A stretch of DNA of 64,000 nucleotides from Candidatus Latescibacterota bacterium (GTDB taxonomy: Bacteria; Latescibacterota; CBDEFO01): positions 128,001 through 192,000 of the forward strand of contig CBDEFO010000004.1 in assembly GCA_965237525.1 (NCBI GenBank). Direction: 5' to 3'. Position 1 is the stretch's first letter. Every line of letters begins with the position of its first letter. Positions 45,841 to 59,663 of the stretch are shown in pieces. Under the pieces are notes generated by a model. The model was not told the origin of the DNA and searched no databases. It saw only the letters and a program-made list of their open reading frames with translations. The translations under genes were made by a program, and so were the position numbers.

Positions 45841-45936
45841 GTTCTGGTATAATCTCTTATAAGAACGGAATGAGTAAAATAAGGCTTGACTTATCCCCTT
45901 ATTTTCTTTATCTTTGTAGTAACAAAAGGGGAAGTC

Positions 45937-46809
45937 ATGAACCTAATAACAGTCTTTCAAAAGTTTCCAGATCAACAAGCTTGTATCGGCCATTTAGAGC
46001 AAATCCGTTGGCCGGTGATAGCTCTTTGTCCTTTCTGCTCCAGCGATAAAGTAGCACGAAAGGCCGAGGGGGACAAAATTGGCCGCTGGAATTGCCATAA
46101 ATGCACTAACAGCTTTAACGTGCTATCTGGAACCATATTTCAAGGTACCCATATCCCCCTACAGAAATGGTTCCTCGCTATTGCCCTGATGGCCGACGCC
46201 AAGAAAAGCATATCCAGCCACCAGCTTTCACGGGATTTGGACCTGAACCAAAAGACCGCTTGGAGGATGCAACAATGTATCCGCTCCGCCATGACCTCGG
46301 ACGAAGGCGCCTTGCTCCAGGGAATTATCGAGATGGACGAAACCTACGTGGGCGGCAAACCGCGCTACAGAAACGCAGGCAACAAGCGCGGCCGCGGAAC
46401 TAGAAAATCCTCAGTAGTCGGGGCCGTTGAGCGCGGAGGCGAAGTAAAGGCCCAAGTGACCAACGATACCAAGGGCCGGACCCTGCTGGGCTTCATCAAG
46501 CAATCCGTAGAGGTCGCCAAGTCGGCTCTGGTGACGGACGATTACAGCGTCTACCGCAATGCGGGCCGGATGATGCCGCACATAGTCGTAGATCATCGCT
46601 ACGGCTACGTCAATCCTTTGAACCGAGGTATCCACACCAACACCATCGAAGGCTTCTGGGCCCTCATCAAGCGGGCTTGGTACGGCACCCATCATCACTA
46701 CTCCACGCGCTGGATGCCCTTGTTCGTAGGCGAGGCCGCATGGAAGTACAACCGCCGGAATGATCCCGACGGCGGGTTTACTGCGTTTCTGAAGGGGGTT
46801 TTCCGGTAG
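45937..46809 (+). CDS. IS1595-family (ISXO2-like) transposase
   Basis: Zn ribbon CPFC..CHKC; EMDETYVGG, VTDD and HTNTIEGFW motifs. Confidence 0.93.
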   Translation: MNLITVFQKFPDQQACIGHLEQIRWPVIALCPFCSSDKVARKAEGDKIGRWNCHKCTNSFNVLSGTIFQGTHIPLQKWFLAIALMADAKKSISSHQLSRDLDLNQKTAWRMQQCIRSAMTSDEGALLQGIIEMDETYVGGKPRYRNAGNKRGRGTRKSSVVGAVERGGEVKAQVTNDTKGRTLLGFIKQSVEVAKSALVTDDYSVYRNAGRMMPHIVVDHRYGYVNPLNRGIHTNTIEGFWALIKRAWYGTHHHYSTRWMPLFVGEAAWKYNRRNDPDGGFTAFLKGVFR

Positions 46810-46852
46810 CCAACACCGATCCTAACCCTATAAAGAACTGGTGAGGTAAGTT

Positions 46853-49267
46853 TTGAAAAGGAAGGACAGGGACTTTGCAACTGGAAAGCCCGTAGATCTT
46901 CAGAAGCCTGAAGAGCAGGTGCGTCAGGATACGGAAAGATGGCTTATTGAGGAACTTGGGTATATGTTTGAGCAGATTGATATTGAACATAGAATCAGGA
47001 TAGGGTCCAGCTCTCGCAGGGTTGATATAACTGTCTTCAAAACGGGCGAAAAGACGAAGAGGCACCAACACACGGACGTTCTTGGTTTGATTGAAACCAA
47101 ATATGATTCGATGGTTGAGGCCGAAGAACAGTTATGGTCTTATATGGCCGTGTCCACAGGTTGCGAGTGGGGAGTTGCGGCTACGCCGGAAGCGAGGCAA
47201 TTTTATCGAAAGTCAACCGAAGGTAAGATAGAGAGAATACCCGCAATACCTGTTGCTGGTCTTTCTGTTAACGAGGTGGTCAGGCTCAAGAAATCTGAAT
47301 TACAACCTGCACGAAACCTGAAGTTGAGGTTTAGAAGCATTTTGTACCACCTTTATTCAAACACCAACATTCAAAGTAGAACAAGACTGTGTAACGAGAT
47401 GACGAAAATGTTGTTCTGTAAAATATATGATGAGAATTTGGAATCTCCAACGCCTTATTTTCAGGTTTCATCTGGCGCAACGCATGAGGAAGTTAAGGGC
47501 AGCATAGAGAAAAATCTTTGGGCCGGCGTGCTGATGGAACTTTCTACAGCAGGCGTATTTTCAAAGAACGAAAGTATCATATTAGACCCTGATTCAGTAG
47601 CATATGTTGTTGGCGAACTTGAACGCATAAGCCTAAAGAATACCGATTGCGATGCAATCGGTGCGGCTTATGAAGTATTTGCCGAAAAGTATTTTGTCGG
47701 GGAAAAAGGTGAGTTTTTTACCCCTCGGATCGCCGTGAAGCATGCCGTAAAACTTATAAATCCCAATTATGCAGAAAAAATAATTGATCCTGCGTGCGGA
47801 TCGGGCGGTTTTATCATCTACGCCCTTGAACATGTGTGGGATGGGATCATGGCGACAGGGTTGAATAAGAAGAAGGCTAAGGCCCAGGCGCCGCTTCACA
47901 TTTATGGGATCGACAAAGAACCCGATCTGGTAAAAGTCGCTCGTTCCTATATGGCTCTTATTGGAGACGGCCACACTAATATCGTCGATGCGGATTCTTT
48001 AAAACCGATGGAAAAATGGAGCGAACGATCCAGAGTTGTTTTATCGGGTTCTGACGGCTCGCCAAGAAAGTTTGATATTGTCTTAACAAATCCTCCGTTC
48101 GGCGCTGATATAAAGGTGAAGCATTCTTATATTTTGGAAAATTTCGATCTGGGCCACAAATGGGAACGGAATAAAATTTCAGGGGAATGGCAAAAGACTG
48201 GCATGGTAACACCAACGGCTCCCCAGATTTTATTTCTTGAGTTATGTGTGCGACTCCTGAACGCTGGCGGTAGAATGTGCATAGTTTTGCCAGAGAGCGT
48301 GTTGGGGAATCCCACGCAAAGCCATGTCAGACATTGGATTTTGGATAACTTGAAGATTTTGGCTATTTGGGACTGTCCACAGAATCTATTTTTGCCACAT
48401 ACAAACACCAAGACCTGTATTTTGTTTGCCGAAAAGACAAAGACTAAAAATCAGGTAATAATGATGAGTGTTCTTAAGAAGAGCGGTCATGATGCAAGAG
48501 GCGCGGAAGTGCGGTCCGATACTGGGGATCTGGTTGAAGACTTTTCCAAAGCTGCCACTGATTGGGAAAACAGGCCTGCAAAGGATGATGATATCGAAAG
48601 TTGGCAGGGGGAGGTAAGGTTTTTCATAACCGACAAAAGGCTTCTAGATGATGACATTCTTGTCCCTCGGGTCTGTAGAAGAATAGCTGAACAAGGGCCT
48701 AAAACAGTCAAGTTGCGGGATCTGGAAGGACAACAGTTGATAAAAATAAGGACAGTTCCCTGTGATGTGAGGCAAAGCGAATACGAAATCGGTGGTGCCA
48801 TACCGTTCATTAGGACAACGGACTTTGGAAATATGGAATTGCGGCCACCCGTCCATAGGGTAACAAGATGTGTATATGAAAGAAACCGGAACAACCAGGA
48901 TGTTAAGGCCCTGGATATTTTCATCATTAAAGATGGCACATACAGGATAGGCGAATCAGTCATATTATTGGAGGATGACATAGAAGCAGTTCTCCAAGGC
49001 CATTTCTATAAAATAAGGGTTTTAGACGATAATAGGATAAATCCATACTATTTGTATTGGGCTTTAAGAAGATCACACTCAGTCATTCTCGATCTGGTCT
49101 TGGTGCAATCTACATTATCGTCAATAACTATTGATCGACTTCGGGATATCCGAATTCCTTTTATGTCTGAAAAGGTCCAGGAGGAAATAGGAAAAGAGAT
49201 GGAAAGTATACTTTGTGGCCGAAAAGCGTTTCTTAATCAGTACAACGATCTTTCTCACAAAAAGTAA
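46853..49267 (+). CDS. Fused restriction-modification enzyme (HsdR_N-like nuclease + N6-adenine MTase + TRD; Type IIG/IIC-like)
   Basis: PEEQVRQ, RVDI...IETK, GEFFTPR, DPACGSGG and TNPPFG motifs; C-terminal TRD-like IPFIRT..IRIP. Confidence 0.85.
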   Translation: MKRKDRDFATGKPVDLQKPEEQVRQDTERWLIEELGYMFEQIDIEHRIRIGSSSRRVDITVFKTGEKTKRHQHTDVLGLIETKYDSMVEAEEQLWSYMAVSTGCEWGVAATPEARQFYRKSTEGKIERIPAIPVAGLSVNEVVRLKKSELQPARNLKLRFRSILYHLYSNTNIQSRTRLCNEMTKMLFCKIYDENLESPTPYFQVSSGATHEEVKGSIEKNLWAGVLMELSTAGVFSKNESIILDPDSVAYVVGELERISLKNTDCDAIGAAYEVFAEKYFVGEKGEFFTPRIAVKHAVKLINPNYAEKIIDPACGSGGFIIYALEHVWDGIMATGLNKKKAKAQAPLHIYGIDKEPDLVKVARSYMALIGDGHTNIVDADSLKPMEKWSERSRVVLSGSDGSPRKFDIVLTNPPFGADIKVKHSYILENFDLGHKWERNKISGEWQKTGMVTPTAPQILFLELCVRLLNAGGRMCIVLPESVLGNPTQSHVRHWILDNLKILAIWDCPQNLFLPHTNTKTCILFAEKTKTKNQVIMMSVLKKSGHDARGAEVRSDTGDLVEDFSKAATDWENRPAKDDDIESWQGEVRFFITDKRLLDDDILVPRVCRRIAEQGPKTVKLRDLEGQQLIKIRTVPCDVRQSEYEIGGAIPFIRTTDFGNMELRPPVHRVTRCVYERNRNNQDVKALDIFIIKDGTYRIGESVILLEDDIEAVLQGHFYKIRVLDDNRINPYYLYWALRRSHSVILDLVLVQSTLSSITIDRLRDIRIPFMSEKVQEEIGKEMESILCGRKAFLNQYNDLSHKK

Positions 49268-49304
49268 TATATACTGCTATATGGTGGGAAAATCAAGCCT
49301 GATT

Positions 49305-49679
49305 TTACTCATTCCGAATCTCAATACCCTCTTTTTCGGCTTGGGAGACGATGTTGATCTGCTCGGTTTTCCGTGCGTACTCTTCGGGCGTATAGCATAA
49401 AACTTCCAGATTTTCAGGAAGATTCCAGTATCTGCTGACCTCAGCCGACCTTTGAGTAAACTGTATGTTTTGGAATGAGCGTGAGACGAGTATAAGATCG
49501 TAGTCGCTATCTATAAGTTCATCGCCCCTTGCGCGCGATCCGAAGATAATTGCCCTCTGAAGGGGGGACTCCGCGCTAAGTCGCTTCACAAAGCTCTTTA
49601 GGGCTTTCCAATCTATTCCGATCCCCGATTGAATCCTTCGGGGACAGCGCCTGCCTTTTTCAACAGTGTATGAACCCAT
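49305..49679 (-). CDS. Minimal nucleotidyltransferase (MNT antitoxin)
   Basis: FGSRARGD..SDYDL motif; its stop codon lies inside the IS TIR. Confidence 0.88.
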   Translation of the reverse strand: MGSYTVEKGRRCPRRIQSGIGIDWKALKSFVKRLSAESPLQRAIIFGSRARGDELIDSDYDLILVSRSFQNIQFTQRSAEVSRYWNLPENLEVLCYTPEEYARKTEQINIVSQAEKEGIEIRNE

Positions 49680-50352: not shown

Positions 50353-51951
50353 GTGTCAGCAAGATTCTTGGCTCTACTACTACTTTTCCTTTTGTTCAGC
50401 GGATGCGGCGATACGTTTGACAAGAGTTCTTCGGATGCCTCGGCTGTCCTTGTGTTCGGGAGAGGAGGAGATTCGGTAGGCCTGGACCCGGCTTTGGAGG
50501 ATGACGGAGAATCGCTCAAAGTATGCGACAATATATACGACAATCTGGTTCAGTACAAGGACGAGACGACAGAGGTAGAGCCGGGACTTGCAAAGTCGTG
50601 GGACGTTTCGGATGACGAGCTAAAGTGGGCATTTCACCTCAGAAGTGGAGTCAAATTCCATGACGGAACTAACTTTAACGCCGATGCTGTTGTCTTTTCC
50701 TTAGGACGTCAGTTCTTCAAGGACCATCCTTTTCACAAAGTAGAGGGGACATATAAATATTGGAAGTCCATGGGGATGGATGACATTATCAAGGATATCT
50801 ACGCTACGGACGATTCTACGGTGGTCATCCAACTTTCACAGCAGAACGCAACGTTTCTGCCGAATCTGGCGATGAACTTTTGCGCCATTGTCAGCCCTCT
50901 TGCTGTGAAAAAGTGGGCAAACGACTATTTCAAGCACCCTGTGGGCACCGGACCTTTCAAGTTTGTCGAGTGGGTCAAGGATGAGAGGATAGTGCTGGAG
51001 AGGAATCCCGACTATTGGGGCGATCCTCCGAAATTGGGAAAGCTCATCTTCAAATCAATCCTCGAAAACTCTGTGCGGTTCTTAGAACTCAAGACCGGCT
51101 CTATCGACGGGATGGACAATGTTATCCCCGATTTTGTAGATGACATTAAATCGGATGACAATCTAAAGCTTTTGACTCAATTGGGCATGAACGTCGGCTA
51201 CCTTGCGATGAATATGGAGATGGAGCCCTTCAACGACAGGAGAGTCCGAATAGCGATAAATCACGCCATAAATAAGAAATCCCTGGTAGACAATCTGTAT
51301 CAGGGGCTCGCTATCCCGGCTAAAAATCCCATTCCTCCTCCTCCGGCTATGTGGGGCTATAACGATAGCATCGAAGATTACGCCTACGATCCCCAGATGG
51401 CAAAAAAGCTCCTCTCAGAGGCCGGATTCCCCGAGGGATTCGAGACCGAGCTTTGGGCTATGCCCGTTCCGAGACCCTACATGCCCCAGCCCCAGAAGAT
51501 AGCCCAGGCGCTTCAGGCGGATCTAACGGCTGTAGGAATCGAGGTAAGGATCGTCCGCTATGAATGGGGGACCTATTTAGATAAGGTGGAGAACGGCGAC
51601 CACCAGATGGCCCTGTTGGGATGGACGGGCGACAACGGCGACCCCGACAATTTCCTCTACGTCCTTTTGGACAAAAACGCCGCGGTTAAACCGGCTCAGA
51701 ACATCGCATTCTACAGGAGCGAGGAACTCCACGAGGTTCTGGTCGAAGCGAGGAGGATCACAGATAGAGCAAAAAGGGCGGAGCTTTACAGAAAGGCGCA
51801 GGAGATCGTACACAGTGATGCGCCCTGGGTCCCCTTAGTCCATTCGACCCAGATGGCGGTGTTTAAGAAGTCTGTGGTAGGGTTCAAACTCCATCCGACG
51901 GGGAATAAGATATTTAAGAACGTGTGGTTCGATTCGTCATTGAAGAACTGA
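50353..51951 (+). CDS. dppA: Dipeptide/oligopeptide ABC transporter substrate-binding lipoprotein
   Basis: Lipobox FSGC; LRSGVKFHDG, PVGTGPF, MPVPRPY and GWTGDNGDPDNF motifs. Confidence 0.92.
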   Translation: MSARFLALLLLFLLFSGCGDTFDKSSSDASAVLVFGRGGDSVGLDPALEDDGESLKVCDNIYDNLVQYKDETTEVEPGLAKSWDVSDDELKWAFHLRSGVKFHDGTNFNADAVVFSLGRQFFKDHPFHKVEGTYKYWKSMGMDDIIKDIYATDDSTVVIQLSQQNATFLPNLAMNFCAIVSPLAVKKWANDYFKHPVGTGPFKFVEWVKDERIVLERNPDYWGDPPKLGKLIFKSILENSVRFLELKTGSIDGMDNVIPDFVDDIKSDDNLKLLTQLGMNVGYLAMNMEMEPFNDRRVRIAINHAINKKSLVDNLYQGLAIPAKNPIPPPPAMWGYNDSIEDYAYDPQMAKKLLSEAGFPEGFETELWAMPVPRPYMPQPQKIAQALQADLTAVGIEVRIVRYEWGTYLDKVENGDHQMALLGWTGDNGDPDNFLYVLLDKNAAVKPAQNIAFYRSEELHEVLVEARRITDRAKRAELYRKAQEIVHSDAPWVPLVHSTQMAVFKKSVVGFKLHPTGNKIFKNVWFDSSLKN

Positions 51952-52019
51952 ATGTCCATTCTCATACCCAATGTTGGTATATCAGAGAATTGAAACAACT
52001 CTATTGAAGGAACAAATAA

Positions 52020-53280
52020 ATGAGTGATCCTCGGAAGGGTTGGATTCCCGGAGTTCTATCCAAGTCACAGATGAGAAGAACTGTGTGACATGTGGTTTTA
52101 TTAGGGGTGTTCAAGATCTTGGTGAGTCAATTGACTATTCATCGATTGACTCTGCATCTGACAGACGAAGGTTATCAGATGGTTGCAGTGGATCTGTAAA
52201 ACCATGGGGAGATAGATATGAGCATTCTTCATTAAGAAACAGGGACTTCGCCAAGCCTTTGGAGGCAAGACAAAGAAGATGGCACATTTATCACTTAAAT
52301 GCAAGAGAATACCTATGTATTCAAATTACATGAGAATATATCTTCTTTGAAAAAGGCCAAAATATATGGCCAAGCTACTGCAAAAAGCTCAGTCGGACGC
52401 GTGGATGTACTTGCTCGGCTCATCGTAGACGGAATGGATTGCTATGAGACGTTTCGATCCGGATCTGGTTTGAAAGAAGATAGGCTCCGGGGAAATGTAT
52501 CTCGAAATAACACCTATCACTTTCAATGTAAGAGTCAAAGAGGGGATATCGACTCTCACAGCTGAGGCTGTTTTATGGTAAGACCTCAGATACGCTGAAG
52601 TAGCATGGAGATGAATTATATGAATCCTTGTTGTCGCAATAGACGAGGAAAGAGACGGTTCCCTTTCTGTAAATCTTTCAGAAGTGGATAATTTCAGGGG
52701 AAAAAGTCTCGGCGTTTTATGCGAAGCAAATGCGAAGAGGGAGAGGAACTTATAGGAGAAAGACGAGGACGGGTTTATAGATCTATGGGAGCATGAAGAA
52801 GCTGAAGAGAAGCCTGTCTCCGTGTAAATATTGGAGATTCCTACGGAAAGACGAACACAATAGATTAAAAATTGGGAAAGGTAATTTTTACATTATGAGA
52901 TCCAAGGAAAGGATCTCTCTGCCGGGAGGAATTGCAGTATATTGCCGTGCAATGGATGAAACAATCGGGGAAATGCGAATTCATTATGCGGGTTTCGTTC
53001 ACCCTTTCTTTGGGAAAAACCGAAAGGACAAGGAGGACGGAACCCCACTAATATTTGAAGTCCGAGGACACGATGTTGATGTCAGCCTGAGACACGAAGA
53101 AAAAATGGCAAATCTTACTTTCTACCGTATGTCTCAAGACTGTAAAGAACCCCAGGATCGTAAACCTACCTCATATACTGGACAAGAGCTGAAATTATCC
53201 AAGATATTCCAAGGACTGGCCGTCTAAAGTGAAGGTGGAATAATGATGGTAGTGTGCAAGAGGTCATCGATGGAGGCTAA
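52020..53280 (+). pseudogene. dCTP deaminase (DCD / PF06559-type), multiply frameshifted
   Basis: KSSVGRVDV.ARL, EITPITF, FYIMRSKE, GEMRIHYAGF.HPFFG, FEVRGHDV and Y.GQELKLSK motifs across frames. Confidence 0.75.
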
Positions 53281-53282
53281 AA

Positions 53283-54336
53283 ATGGAAGACTTGTTCTCA
53301 TCAATTAAGAAAGGACTTCAAAATCGTTCGTTTGAACGAAGGGGATACCAAGAACTTAAGCGACCATTTATCTTACTTCAAAGACTTAGTGTCGGAAAAT
53401 GAAGAGATGTATCCTAACATTGAGAAGTGGGTTGATGATAAGGTTATTCCTGGGCTGAAGTCGTCTGAAAGGGCAGCTTTTGTAGGGTATTTGGATGAAG
53501 CACCCTGTCGATATCTGCCGTCGTGAAGCGGGGTAAGGATTCGAAATTCTGTCACCTTCGAATCCGTGATGATCTACAAGACATGCATCTGGGCGAAATA
53601 TTCTTTTCGTTAATGGCATTAGAAGTCCGCCACAAAGCCGAAGAAATCCATTTCACTCTTCCTGAAAGCCTGTGGGAAACAAAGCGTGAGTTCTTCCATT
53701 CATTTGGATTCAACGAGGCAACTGAGGCTGAGACCCAATATAGGCTATTCGATACTGAGTTAAGATGCTCATCCTCTTTCTCGGCAGTCTGGAGAGCTGT
53801 TTTGGATAGACTGCCTAAGATTGCGGACATCTTCTCAGTCGCTGGGTATTCTATGCACAATGGGTTATTAATGAGTATTCAACCAGAATATGCGGATAGG
53901 CTTTTAAGTGGAGCAAAAAAGAGCTGAGATACGCAGAAAATTTTCAACGAAGTGGGCTGGACAGAAAGTTAGCCTCTACGCCTCTTCTCCCTCGAATGCC
54001 CTGGTTGGTGAAGCGATGATAGATAGAGTAGTTGTAGGTGAGCCTGAGCGCATTTGGGCAGAGTTCAATTCTGAAACAGACTGTACGAAGGAGGAATTCG
54101 ATAAGTACACAGAGTCAGCCAAAGAGATTTACGCGATTGTATTTCATGAAGTGCTGCCCTACAAAGAGAAGATCTTTCTTACCCAAGTGTCCCATCTTCT
54201 AAACAAGGATTTAACACCTCCCCAATCTTATTGTACCCTTGAAAATAACAAACCATGGGTTGAGGCAGTATCTATTGCTGCACTCTTACATGGCAGCTTT
54301 AGAATTACAGAACCTCTGAATCTTCAATACAATTGA
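53283..54336 (+). pseudogene. GNAT-ASCH fusion protein, three frameshifts
   Basis: GNAT part: YPNIEKW..KV, KFCHLRI..LG, HFTLPE..FF.SFGF. ASCH part: LMSIQPEYA..L.G.K..EIR, LYASSP...VGE, PPQSY. Confidence 0.72.
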
Positions 54337-54341
54337 CATAT

Positions 54342-54374
54342 CCTTTAAACACCTTGTAGGTGATTATTTAAAGG
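54342..54374 (+). terminator. Hairpin at the end of the inserted cassette
   Basis: CCTTTAAA-CACCT-TGT-AGGTG-ATTA-TTTAAAGG. Confidence 0.4.
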
Positions 54375-54400
54375 TCACTAAAACGATTACTTGAAAGGCT

Positions 54401-55404
54401 ATGAGATCGTTCATCCTGAAGCGCTTGGCTCTGTTGATCCCGACGCTGTTGGGTATATCTGTTATGGTTTTTTAATGATCCACCTCGTGCCGGGCGATCC
54501 CGCTCAAGTGATGCTGGGAGAACGGGCGAGCGCGGAAAGCCTGGCGGAGCTCAGAGCTGAGTTAGGTCTGGATAAGCCGTTTTACGTCCAGTTCGGAAGA
54601 TTCTTCTTCGGACTAATACAAGGAGATTTGGGAAGGTCTATAAAGACGCACGAGCGCGTGATCGTGGAACTTAAAAACAGATTCCCTGCGACGGTGGAGC
54701 TGGCAGTTGCAAGCATGATCTTATCCTCCATAGTCGGAATCTCAGCTGGAGTGCTGTCGGCCGTAAGGCGCGGCACCATCTTAGATTACACTGGGATGAT
54801 GGCCGCTTTGATAGGCATATCTATGCCTATATTCTGGCTGGGGCTGATATTCATACTCATCTTCTCGGTGAGTCTGGGGCTTTTCCCTATATCGGGAAGG
54901 TTAAGTTCAGATGTAGAGCTGGAGGTTGTGACCCGATTTTACGTGATAGATAGTCTGCTCGGCGCAAATATAAGAGCTTTCAAAGATGCCCTGTGGCACC
55001 TATTTCTGCCCGCGGTCGCCCTGGGGACGATTCCGATGGCGGTGATCGCAAGGATGACCCGATCAAGCATGATAGAGGTGATGGGCGAGGACTATATAAG
55101 GACAGCCTGGGCGAAGGGGCTGTCTGAGAGGATCGTGGTCCTGAAGCACGCTATGAAGAACAGCTTCACACCGACGCTGACCGTGATGGGCATCGAATTC
55201 GGATATTTGTTGGGCGGAGCGATAATAACTGAGACGATCTTTTCGTGGCCGGGTGTCGGCAGATGGTTGCTCTTTGCCGTTCAGGCGAGGGATTTCAGGG
55301 CCGTTCAGGGAGGAGTCCTTTTGATAGCGATCACATTCGTCTTGATCAACCTTATCGTGGATCTCCTCTATGCGTGGCTCGACCCGAGGATAAAGTACGC
55401 CTGA
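54401..55404 (+). CDS. dppB: Dipeptide ABC permease (T6 homopolymer frameshift near 54470, likely error)
   Basis: MRSFILKRLALLIPTLLG..., PGDPA, GDLGRS and DYIRTAWAKG motifs. Confidence 0.88.
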
Positions 55405-56272: not shown

Positions 56273-56414
56273 TAGGTCTAGATAAGCTTTGGGTTATGTA
56301 TTCCATAGCTGAGAGCGAACATTTTCCTTAGCCTGCGTTTTCACTTGCAGCAGATGCTCTCCTAGCAGTTTCTGAAAGGAAATATACACAAACCTCTTGG
56401 GGAGGAATGTTAGT

Positions 56415-59400
56415 ATGGATGCCAAATTTTCTAAAGGCGATAAAGTTATAATTAGAGCACTGGGCAACAGGAAGGGTATAATTGATGCTGAACACGACGT
56501 AAAAAAAGGCAGATTATTGTACCCTGTTTCTATTGATCCAAACCAAGAAAGTAGTCCCTATTACCCAGAAGATTCACTGGAAAAATTTGTTCCACTAAAA
56601 TCAGTAGAACAACTATTAAAAGGAAAAGAATTTTCTGATATTGAGGATTTTATTCAGACACTGATTTATAGAAAACTGGAGAGACCTCTAGCCGACAATC
56701 TATATACGTTTTATGCCTCACGAACACAATTTCTGGTTCACCAATTTAAGCCCGTCCTTAAATTTCTCAATACGCCCAAACAAAGGCTTTTGTTGGCGGA
56801 TGAAGTTGGATTAGGCAAAACCATTGAGACAGGTATTATTCTCACAGAAATGTCTGCACGATTAGGGCAATTGTCCAGAGTTTTGATTGTATGTCCTTCC
56901 ATGTTAACCCAGAAATGGGAACAGGAGATGCACAAACGATTTAGCTTAGATTTTAGTATTTTGGACAGAGATGACTTTAGAAAATTCTTGGAGAAATATA
57001 CCAGATATGGAGAGGGAGAGAAACTAAAGGGCATAATTCCTCTCCAAATTGTTAGGTCAAAGGAAATGATCAAAAGCTTAAGAGAGATAGAACCACACTT
57101 TGATATTGTTGTGGTTGACGAAGCACATCACATGAGAAATCCTGAAACCCTAAGCAGTAAACTTGGTGAGGTTTTATCAGAATTATCAGATGCAATGCTT
57201 TTCCTCTCTGCTACACCTTTGCAATTGGGAACACCTGACCTCTTTAATCTTCTTGGTCTTCTCATCCCAGAAGAGTTTTCAGATTTTCCTTTGTTTCATA
57301 ACCTCATTGAACCTAATGAATATATTAACAATGCCCTGCGGAGATTACATGATCCATCTGCTGCACTTGAATTACTTAAGAAAGTCGAAGAAACATCTCA
57401 AAAAGAAAGGTTCATCAAAAATTCTTTCTATCGTGAAGCAATGGATCTGCTTAGCAATAATAGCAAACTAACCCGTGAACAAGCGATTCGTCTGCAGAGA
57501 CTTTTGATAGAGTTGAATTGCTTATCCTATGTATTTACCAGAACGAAAAAGAGAGATGTTCAAGTTGAATTTCCTATTAGGGAAGCAAGAGTCATTCGGG
57601 TTGAATTTACGCCAGAAGAGATGAAGTTTTACGATGCAGTCACGGATTTTGTCTCGGAACGCTTTACAGCAAGAGATGGTCTTCACAAGGAATTTCTTTT
57701 GCAGTCATAATGCCTCAAAGACAGGTGGCAAGCTGTATTCAAGCTATGAAAGAAAGTCTTGATGATATAGTCAAGAAAAGAGTTATCAGAGCCCCATCTG
57801 TAGATAATGGAGATATGATCGACTCTTCCCTTGATATTGATTCATCTTGGGAATTAGAAGACGGAGAAGTCTTTTCTATTTCGAAGCTTAAAGAAACTGC
57901 CAATAGAATAGGCAATATTGACACAAAATTTGATAGGTTTTTGGAAGTATTACGTAACCTCGAAGAAGAAGACCCCAGTGCAAAGATAATCGTGTTTGCG
58001 TTTTTTAAAAAGACTCTGGAATATCTAAGAAGAAGATTAGAAGGTACAGAGTATAGTCAAAAGGTAGGCCTAATTCATGGGGATATTGCTACAAAGCATA
58101 GACAGAAGATTATTAAGAAGTTTCGCCAAACAGATGAAATAAAAATTCTACTTTCTTCTGAAGTCAGTGGTGAGGGGTTAGACTTTGAATTCTGTACTGT
58201 AGTTTTTAACTATGATTTACCATGGAACCCAATGAAAGTGGAGCAGCGAATCGGTCGGCTAGATCGTTATGGTCAACGCCATGAAAAAATTCTTATTTAC
58301 AACTTCTCAATGGTGGGAACTGTAGATGATGAAATTTTGAACCGTCTGTACCGAAGAATAAATATTTTTGAGAGGTATATTGGAGACTTAGATGCCATCT
58401 TAGGAGACCACATAACAAAGTTAACAAGGGAGATATTTAATACAAAGCTAACTGCTGCGCAGAAGATCACAAGGATTGAAAAAGTAAGTGAAAATATAAA
58501 AAGAAGGCAGACAGAATTAGAAGAGTTTGAGAGAGAGTGCCAGAAGTTTATCGGTCAAGATGAATATTTCAATCAAGAAACCACAAGAATTAGGGAGACG
58601 AAGCGCTTCATTACTTCAATTGAAGTAAAGTTCTTTCTTGAATTCTTTCTTAAAAGCAATTTCCCAAAAACCACGTTGCTTTGTCCCAAGAGCGGAAGGT
58701 CCGACGTGTTAGTTCTCAAATGTGACGATGATTTTCGCAAATTTGTTAGACAATATTCCCCTAAAACTGATAACATAAGCGAATTAGAGAGAAAATTAGA
58801 ATTTGACGGTGGTATCTTGGTAACTTTCAAGGACGAAGAAGCCTGTAGAGACGAATCTTTGGAATTCATTACAATTCATCATCCAATAGTCAAAGCAATA
58901 AAACAGTACTATGTTGAGAATAATCAAAAGATCCATACCACAGCACAATTCCGCTTAACAGGAAAAACTGAATACCAAGGTAAATACATTTTTCTCATAT
59001 ATTTGTTAGAAAAGAGTGCGTTAAAGACCGATCTTATTTTGGTACCAATTCTTGTCAACTTGGAAAATAGTAAAGTCAACGTAGTAATGCATGAACTTTG
59101 CGATTGGTTCTTGGGTGAAATTGTGGAAGCAAAATCCCCAGGCGATGAAACTCTGGCAACGTACGAAGTCCAGAACTTTGAAACAGCATTTAAAGAGGCA
59201 GGATAATATATTGAGATGGCTCGCGATGATGAGCAGCAGAAGCTAAGGAGAAGTAACGACACATTAGTAAATAACCAAATTGAAAGTGTTAAACAGGCAA
59301 CTGAAATTAAAATAAAGAAAAGCGAAGACACTATCAGGAAACTTAAACAGGGAGGCAGTACCGAAGAAGATCCTATAGTTAGGCTTCACAGAGGAATAAT

Positions 59401-59515
59401 CCGGAACGTTCGAGATCATATGGACCAGAAAATAAGAGAATTAGAGCAAAAAAGAACTGTTTTGGTGACGTTTAATCTTATTGCGGGTGGAGTAGTGGAA
59501 ATTGAAGAATCATAA
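56415..59515 (+). pseudogene. SNF2-family helicase (RapA/HepA-like), frameshift near 57685 and TAA at 59204-59206
   Basis: LADEVGLGKT, DEAH, SATP, EGLD, YDLPWNP and EQRIGRLDR motifs; AT-rich. Confidence 0.85.
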
Positions 59516-59663
59516 TCCGGGCATAGTCGGAAAAATGGCTAAGCAAAAGGGTCGCCTAAAACATATTAGATGCTCAAAGTCAACAAGGAACTCTTGAGTG
59601 CCGGGCGTGGCAACTTCTGTAATTGGCAGCATTAGACCAAATAAGACGCTGAGACAACAGAAT

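Follow-up and report, generated by a model that had tools for sequence, protein, structure and literature searches.

The 64,000-nucleotide (nt) stretch of Candidatus Latescibacterota DNA considered here (assembly GCA_965237525.1, contig CBDEFO010000004.1, positions 128,001 to 192,000, forward strand; below, "the window") carries between dppA and dppB a cassette of two genes, the first encoding a dCTP deaminase (DCD) and the second a fusion of a GNAT acetyltransferase with an ASCH domain. A preliminary description of the same DNA had named both genes, in this order and place, and Pfam domains and the folds modelled for P0001, an intact relative of the second protein, agree with it. The features are:

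50353..51951, + strand: dppA (SBP_bac_5), a host gene with the insertion site at its 3' end (Pfam, alignment with genome G001)
51924..54394, no strand: strain-variable insert (empty site in G001; joint 51923-54395 in sequencing run X4)
52020..53280, + strand: cassette-type two-domain dCTP deaminase (DCD_N and DCD_C, dUTPase fold), about 400 amino acids (aa) in intact relatives
53283..54336, + strand: GNAT-ASCH fusion, 349 aa in P0001, with three assembly-error breaks
54339..54378, + strand: weak hairpin after the cassette, a possible but marginal terminator (stem 54350-54362)
54401..55404, + strand: dppB, the host gene downstream of the insert (assembly one base short after 54468)

DCD and GNAT-ASCH form a real, compact, mobile two-gene module, near-obligately linked and in fixed order. 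Among genomes, the best 80 of 89 loci by GNAT-ASCH alignment were taken, five of them without room upstream; a DCD lies directly upstream in 72 of the remaining 75, and in L090, one of the three exceptions, the DCD is interrupted by a stop codon. Among metagenomes, GNAT-ASCH is found downstream of the DCD in all 75 loci with room, from the best 80 of 434 by DCD alignment (69 distinct, five without room). Absence of linkage in other genomes, which would have refuted the preliminary proposal, is not what was observed. A search for DCD_C across one acidobacterial class, made independently of the partner gene and leaving out one unpublished genome, gave the same picture: GNAT-ASCH adjoins four of four cassette-type DCDs and none of 16 stand-alone ones. 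One protein, P0241, is a 724-aa fusion of DCD and GNAT-ASCH on a single contig. Pairwise identities of the two proteins are correlated (rho 0.58, against a maximum of 0.20 in 500 permutations), with a contribution from shared descent, and the nearest neighbour is the same for both in 30 of 60 cases. No conserved third gene was found, the next most frequent cluster occurring in 9 of 160 loci.

The distribution is patchy and horizontally acquired. Hosts belong to at least seven phyla, by record title Acidobacteriota, Planctomycetota, Verrucomicrobiota, Myxococcota, Bacteroidota, Thermodesulfobacteriota and Pseudomonadota, and most are uncultured Acidobacteriota, Planctomycetota and other soil or sediment lineages. 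In the host phylum itself, just one of 168 genomes (G000) carries the full GNAT-ASCH fusion, with an ASCH-only match in 15 others. In all 60 loci with 6 kb or more of flanking sequence the cassette is lower in GC than its surroundings (median -9.6 points), in contrast to stand-alone DCDs, where this holds for nine of 15 (median -0.6).

At the dpp locus the insert is recent and polymorphic among very close strains. Comparison with G001, which is of the same genus and about 95% identical, places it at 51924-54394 (2,471 bp as assembled). It takes the place of 14 bp at the 3' end of dppA, giving that gene a new C-terminus and stop; at the joint between dppA and dppB, G001 has 14 different bases in place of these 2,471. 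The same empty joint is found in X4. The insert had been described as more AT-rich than its surroundings, and its GC content (0.427, vs. 0.503 for dppA and 0.523 for dppB) bears this out. No target-site duplication was seen in the junction alignments, a dedicated repeat search not having been made. No promoter site was found upstream of the cassette, and consensus sites are fewer there than in shuffled sequences. Among the data sets listed as containing the sequence none is of RNA, which speaks neither for nor against expression. The hairpin reported after the cassette exists, but its strength is marginal (folding z -1.95, with an equally good fold in 14 of 200 shuffles). The base absent from the assembly after 54468, in dppB, is present in X1, X2, X4 and G001.

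As assembled, neither cassette gene is open. In frameshift-aware alignments the DCD is 82% identical to P0121 and 79% to P0122, and GNAT-ASCH 93% identical to P0001. The DCD shows 14 shifts and four stops against P0121, or 20 shifts and one stop against P0122, and GNAT-ASCH three shifts against P0001. The junction between them is as first described, with the DCD stop (TAA, 53278-53280) followed after 2 nt by the GNAT-ASCH ATG at 53283. With more than 20 breaks in the assembled sequence, the cassette could be read as a pseudogene remnant without function in this genome, but this is almost certainly wrong and was rejected. Each of the frameshifts, in both genes, is an extra base in the window, and intact relatives are 80-93% identical. 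A short-read contig from X1 (953 nt) covers 982 window bases with 29 gaps and eight other letters, and at least 11 of the window positions it leaves out are inside the insert, among the rows listed. None of the three GNAT-ASCH breaks, nor of the two DCD breaks at the 3' end, appears in the contigs of X1 and X2/X3, from two studies. The frameshifts are assembly errors, not decay, since the short-read contigs of two studies lack those that were checked, and the organism therefore most likely carries intact genes.

Pfam places DCD_N at 52299-52562 (E 2.9e-7) and DCD_C at 52781-53224 (E 1.2e-27), and a model of the cassette DCD resembles 2r9q (TM 0.72) and the classical Dcd and Dcd:dut enzymes. 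It is not an orthologue of the housekeeping DCD. Four intact relatives score 167-188 bits against PRK07559, under the curated cut-off of 283 bits; identity between cassette and stand-alone DCDs is about 28%; and in a quick IQ-TREE reconstruction a long branch (SH-aLRT 100) divides 64 cassette DCDs from 19 stand-alone ones, so that grouping with stand-alone enzymes, which would have told against the preliminary proposal, is not seen. Some clades within this tree follow host phylum. The motif-3 His described below and the separate Dcd of the host were further grounds for rejecting orthology. A classical Dcd is present in both G000 and G001, the cassette DCD is also redundant in G034, and a Dcd of some form was detected at E <= 1e-20 in 18 of 30 cassette hosts.

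The cassette DCD retains the residues for deamination, with one change in motif 3. Kept in both DCD groups (P0121 numbering) are D43, K118, S119, R123, Q175, H305, A307, E330, Y369 and Q372, with S119, R123 and E330 invariant in 62 of 62 cassette DCDs. S119, R123, A307, H311 and E330 align to S111, R115, A124, D128 and E138 of E. coli Dcd. Because Ser119, Arg123, Ala307 and Glu330 thus match Ser111, Arg115, Ala124 and Glu138, the enzyme probably still deaminates dCTP to dUTP. At position 311, in motif 3, all 62 cassette DCDs and 120 of 120 protein hits have His, and 19 of 19 stand-alone DCDs (motif AGFFDPGFG) have Asp. The C-domain hhalign match is weak alone; a separate alignment backs the motif-3 register, in which H311 falls on the motif-3 Asp of both Mycobacterium tuberculosis Dcd:dut and E. 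coli Dcd. Water in Dut is coordinated or positioned by the catalytic Asp, and a D83N mutant has almost no activity (PMC5519681); the nucleoside hairpin is built from motif 3 (PMC4827122). In the classical Dcd of the host, Glu occupies the motif-3 Asp position, so the Asp is probably dispensable for deamination. Further differences between the groups lie at T116, Y138, Y291, C292 and E344, and the clade-specific invariant residues T116, Y138, Y291, H311 and E344 line the DCD pocket.

Among genomes with a stand-alone DCD (L182, L187-L198, L200-L202), just one of 16 has a strong Dut match, vs. seven of eight with a classical Dcd, which suggests that stand-alone DCDs of the PRK07559 type are bifunctional. 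With most of these genomes lacking Dut, the ancestor of the cassette form would have been bifunctional too, and the cassette form would have lost the dUTPase step. No match to a trimeric or dimeric dUTPase was found in the whole genomes of G000 and G001; each has four uracil-DNA glycosylase matches. In P0204, an AAA_17/adenylate-kinase-like domain is fused N-terminally to a cassette-type DCD, a layout that echoes the kinase-deaminase order of defence enzymes with the cytidine deaminase (CDA) fold.

In the window, the second gene matches DUF365, a PUA/ASCH-like family, at 53908-54333 (E 1.4e-6), and GNAT weakly (E 0.039); in P0001 the ASCH score is above the cut-off. The P0001 model (mean pLDDT 88.6) has a GNAT domain at about residues 10-170 and a ZmASCH/GevA-like ASCH domain at about residues 192-338. 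The first has a GNAT fold (Foldseek E ~1e-8; Z 14.8 and root mean square deviation 2.3 Å over 142 residues to 7l1k), and the second is ZmASCH-like (Z 17.6, 2.6 Å, 141 residues). Many GNAT residues are invariant, but the acetyl-CoA motif is unusual, with D, N or H for its first Gly and a Phe where many GNATs have Tyr. The ASCH motif GxKxxExR (K211, E214, R216) is found in 60 of 60 sequences. The position of ZmASCH Tyr47 is kept in 58 and that of Ser128 in 54 of the 60, and that of Lys53 is variable (positions after PMC5615036). A PADLOC search, one of the checks proposed at the outset, matched the ASCH domain to PDC-M11B (E 6e-28) and had no match for four cassette DCDs, so current tools would miss the module. 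ASCH is also 34% identical to GevA (E 5.8e-24). The GNAT domain gives weak matches to PDC-M11A in two of five proteins (E 3.5e-4 and 9.8e-5). When profiles were compared directly, the match to GevT did not reach significance (score 3.2, against 4.6 for the best shuffle; hhalign probability 1.2%).

The preliminary description had proposed that all three domains converge on the cytosine C4 amine. A pathway of this kind, in which cytosine (in nucleotide, DNA or RNA) is N4-acetylated by GNAT, the acetyl mark is recognised or removed by ASCH and the dCTP pool, modified or not, is deaminated or cleared by the His-variant DCD, or in which the pair targets phages with modified cytosine, is fairly improbable. 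Direct support for such convergence was not found, and the ASCH domain is of the GKER/ZmASCH rather than the YqfB type. ZmASCH, its closest solved relative, did not hydrolyse N4-acetylcytidine (ac4C), even though several other GKER-type ASCH proteins do deacetylate it (10.64898/2026.02.27.708502). Bell et al. 2020 (PMC7641849) cite a proposal by Iyer et al. of DNA-base acetylation for (PIN)-GNAT-EVE/ASCH operons, and the clade-specific pocket residues mean that the DCD substrate may differ. The pathway does not, however, predict the asymmetry of decay described next, and the loci have no conserved nuclease, helicase or third gene.

Some role in conflict or modification is probable for the module. 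The reading preferred here, at somewhat under even odds (roughly 45%), is that the DCD acts as effector, converting dCTP to dUTP, under restraint by GNAT-ASCH. Without the dUTPase step, deamination would drain the dCTP pool and stop at dUTP, and the loss of the one or the presence of the other could stall phage DNA synthesis or poison it with uracil. GNAT-ASCH would act as antitoxin and sensor, keeping the DCD inactive through binding or acetylation until it detects phage infection, with ASCH perhaps reading nucleic acid, and the purpose would be abortive phage defence rather than pure addiction. The pattern of decay provides modest evidence, being the one expected if a toxin gene cannot persist once its antitoxin is gone. 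Beside an intact GNAT-ASCH the DCD is missing, truncated or internally broken in six of 66 loci with room, and GNAT-ASCH is broken beside an intact DCD in none of 57 (Fisher p 0.03). The comparison is between two collections, kin in them are not independent, and some of the six breaks may be assembly errors (L049 is a single frameshift, L081 has a run of Ns nearby); it omits four loci in which the anchor gene is itself broken, GNAT-ASCH in three and the DCD in one.

A conflict or defence role, as first suggested, is plausible; enrichment in defence genes beside the cassette is modest. Up to two genes were taken on each side (269 genes, 79 loci) and matches judged by hand, giving a true defence neighbour in 13 of 79 cassette loci, with four more borderline. 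Controls gave two of 20 random loci (77 genes, two long proteins having been dropped for size) and none of 15 stand-alone-DCD loci. Per locus this is weak and not significant (13/79 vs. 2/35 pooled, p 0.14); per gene it is 21/269 vs. 3/137 (p 0.025), with genes not independent. Some copies lie in clear defence islands (L051, L060, L071, L083), the L051 cassette between pAgo/TIR-APAZ and a defence reverse transcriptase (DRT). DUF5131 is found near the cassette in L057, L060, L071, L145 and L171, matching PDC-M30/M41 in the three scanned.

Apart from the limits on the decay and enrichment counts, several observations weigh against the DCD as restrained effector. His can be a general base, so loss of dUTPase activity is not certain, and in 12 of 30 cassette hosts (metagenome-assembled genomes) a separate Dcd was not detected at E <= 1e-20. 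The cassette is not accompanied by an integrase or transposase in the 160 loci. Searches of plasmid, phage and viral-contig collections found no full-length GNAT-ASCH or cassette-type DCD, just stand-alone ASCH genes and stand-alone DCDs, and carriage by phage or plasmid was rejected for this reason. Most copies interrupt housekeeping regions, and in L046, L064, L065, L097 and L152 nrdJ, encoding class II ribonucleotide reductase, is upstream on the same strand.

The five loci with nrdJ fit a metabolic role. In an accessory nucleotide metabolism, the module would provide a regulated alternative route to dUMP and dTTP, or salvage acylated cytidine, with GNAT-ASCH as regulator and no part in conflict. 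The mostly housekeeping neighbours, the hosts without another detectable Dcd and the clades that follow host phylum are all consistent with this. It is nonetheless improbable, given the uniformly low GC, the polymorphism among very close strains, insertion sites that differ, the redundancy with another Dcd in the majority of hosts and an ASCH domain of toxin-antitoxin type.

Also at odds with the restrained effector, the annotated toxin in GevTA is the GNAT-bearing protein, the opposite of the role assigned to GNAT-ASCH here. Reversing the roles gives a signal-effector arrangement that is unlikely, with GNAT-ASCH as effector and with dUTP, or some other deaminated nucleotide produced by the DCD, as a base-modified alarm: ASCH would quiet a GevT-like GNAT or read the signal, and GNAT would then acetylate aminoacyl-tRNA or protein. 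The annotations make GevT (GNAT-EVE) a toxin and GevA (ASCH) its antitoxin, both in PDC-M11, to which the cassette GNAT is weakly matched (on the A side), and Kongming uses dITP made by a deaminase as signal (10.1101/2024.12.20.629578). Here dUTP could persist, as G000 and G001 have no Dut match, and an orphan GNAT-ASCH would be silent without the signal. Most cells, however, hydrolyse dUTP quickly; the cassette GNAT is atypical in its acetyl-CoA motif and not significantly related to GevT by direct profile comparison; and it would be left unexplained why the DCD is never seen without GNAT-ASCH.

Should the DCD prove to be an effector restrained by GNAT-ASCH, there would be two routes to dCTP-depletion immunity with no structural relation between them, and a member of the dUTPase superfamily would have been drawn into conflict by a change that can be seen in its active site. 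GNAT-ASCH proteins, a group that Bell et al. 2020 left uncharacterised, would gain a function as well. The further step to a new class of phage defence is doubtful, though not far-fetched: a housekeeping dUTPase-fold enzyme would have become a dedicated dUTP generator through loss of the motif-3 Asp, under an acetyltransferase-ASCH switch, with dUTP either poisoning phage DNA or serving as an alarm nucleotide, a pyrimidine equivalent of dITP in Kongming. The module is compact, with intact natural copies, one natural fusion and sharp predictions (which gene is toxic; dUTP vs. dUMP). The literature searches made turned up no description of the pair and no paper combining an ASCH domain, a GNAT and a dCTP deaminase, although Iyer et al. 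2013 (PMC3763556) or its supplements may list the architecture; PMC12839542 and 10.1101/2025.11.03.685801 have no bearing on it.

The restriction-modification gene, HEPN-MNT and SNF2 gene reported near the cassette were confirmed. At 45866-49314 of the window there is an IS1595 transposase with an 804-aa HSDR_N/N6-methyltransferase/specificity fusion, both absent from G001 at that place. At 56273-59660 is a DrmD-like SNF2 helicase gene, split at 57707-57710, possibly by another assembly error, where G001 has an amidase and another gene instead. Since G001 lacks the IS1595 and restriction-modification block and the SNF2 gene, the region has three separate strain-specific additions. The dppA-dppB gap is a recurrent insertion spot in two more distant relatives within the phylum (L285:3138-8026, L286:2604-8307), containing MNT-HEPN, a Panacea antitoxin gene split by an insertion sequence, and Mutator-transposase or Fic genes.

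Among known systems, GevT/GevA of phage PhiR47_2 (PV340567.1), equivalent to PADLOC PDC-M11A/B and to (PIN)-GNAT-EVE + ASCH operons, shares the combination of GNAT and ASCH, with homologous ASCH domains. The AAA_17 kinase typical of those operons recurs in P0204. The architectures differ: GevTA has a separate (PIN)-GNAT-EVE gene and then a stand-alone ASCH gene, whereas the cassette has GNAT and ASCH in one chain, no EVE or PIN, and a dCTP deaminase upstream as partner. The toxin and antitoxin roles of GevT and GevA are taken here from the GenBank labels of PV340567.1 alone, no paper on them having been found in the searches made; in PhiR47_2 the two genes directly follow cI (L287:1944-3372). 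The operons are predicted toxin-antitoxin systems (PMC7641849, whose accessible text makes no mention of dCTP).

The other relatives are of single components. Stand-alone DCDs (PRK07559, PF06559/PF22569, PDB 2r9q) share the two-domain fold and the active-site Ser, Arg, His, Glu and Gln with the cassette form, which stands apart in its own clade, its motif-3 Asp-to-His change, its constant pairing, its low GC and its score (187 vs. 283 bits). ZmASCH (PDB 5guq) has the ASCH fold, the GxKxxExR motif and the Tyr47 and Ser128 positions in common with the cassette ASCH, which is instead fused to GNAT and variable at the Lys53 position. The ac4C amidohydrolases of the YqfB type have a GK[T/S]R octapeptide with Thr where the cassette ASCH has Glu (E214).

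In its predicted action the cassette is closest to the defensive deaminases of Tal et al. and AvcID (PMC10511110). Depletion of dCTP by deamination is a proven phage defence (10.1101/2021.04.26.441389), and these systems share with the cassette a predicted conversion of dCTP to dUTP, an accessory, horizontally spread deaminase and control by a second component. Their deaminases depend on zinc, have the CDA fold and carry a kinase at the N-terminus, and AvcI is an RNA, unlike the dUTPase fold and protein partner here. Kongming, too, pairs a deaminase with a nucleotide- or nucleic-acid-binding partner, an analogy only, the cassette having no HAM1 or Sir2 component. Overall, the module would work most like the dCTP-depleting defences without being a member of that family, and it shares an ASCH domain with GevTA/PDC-M11 but not their architecture.

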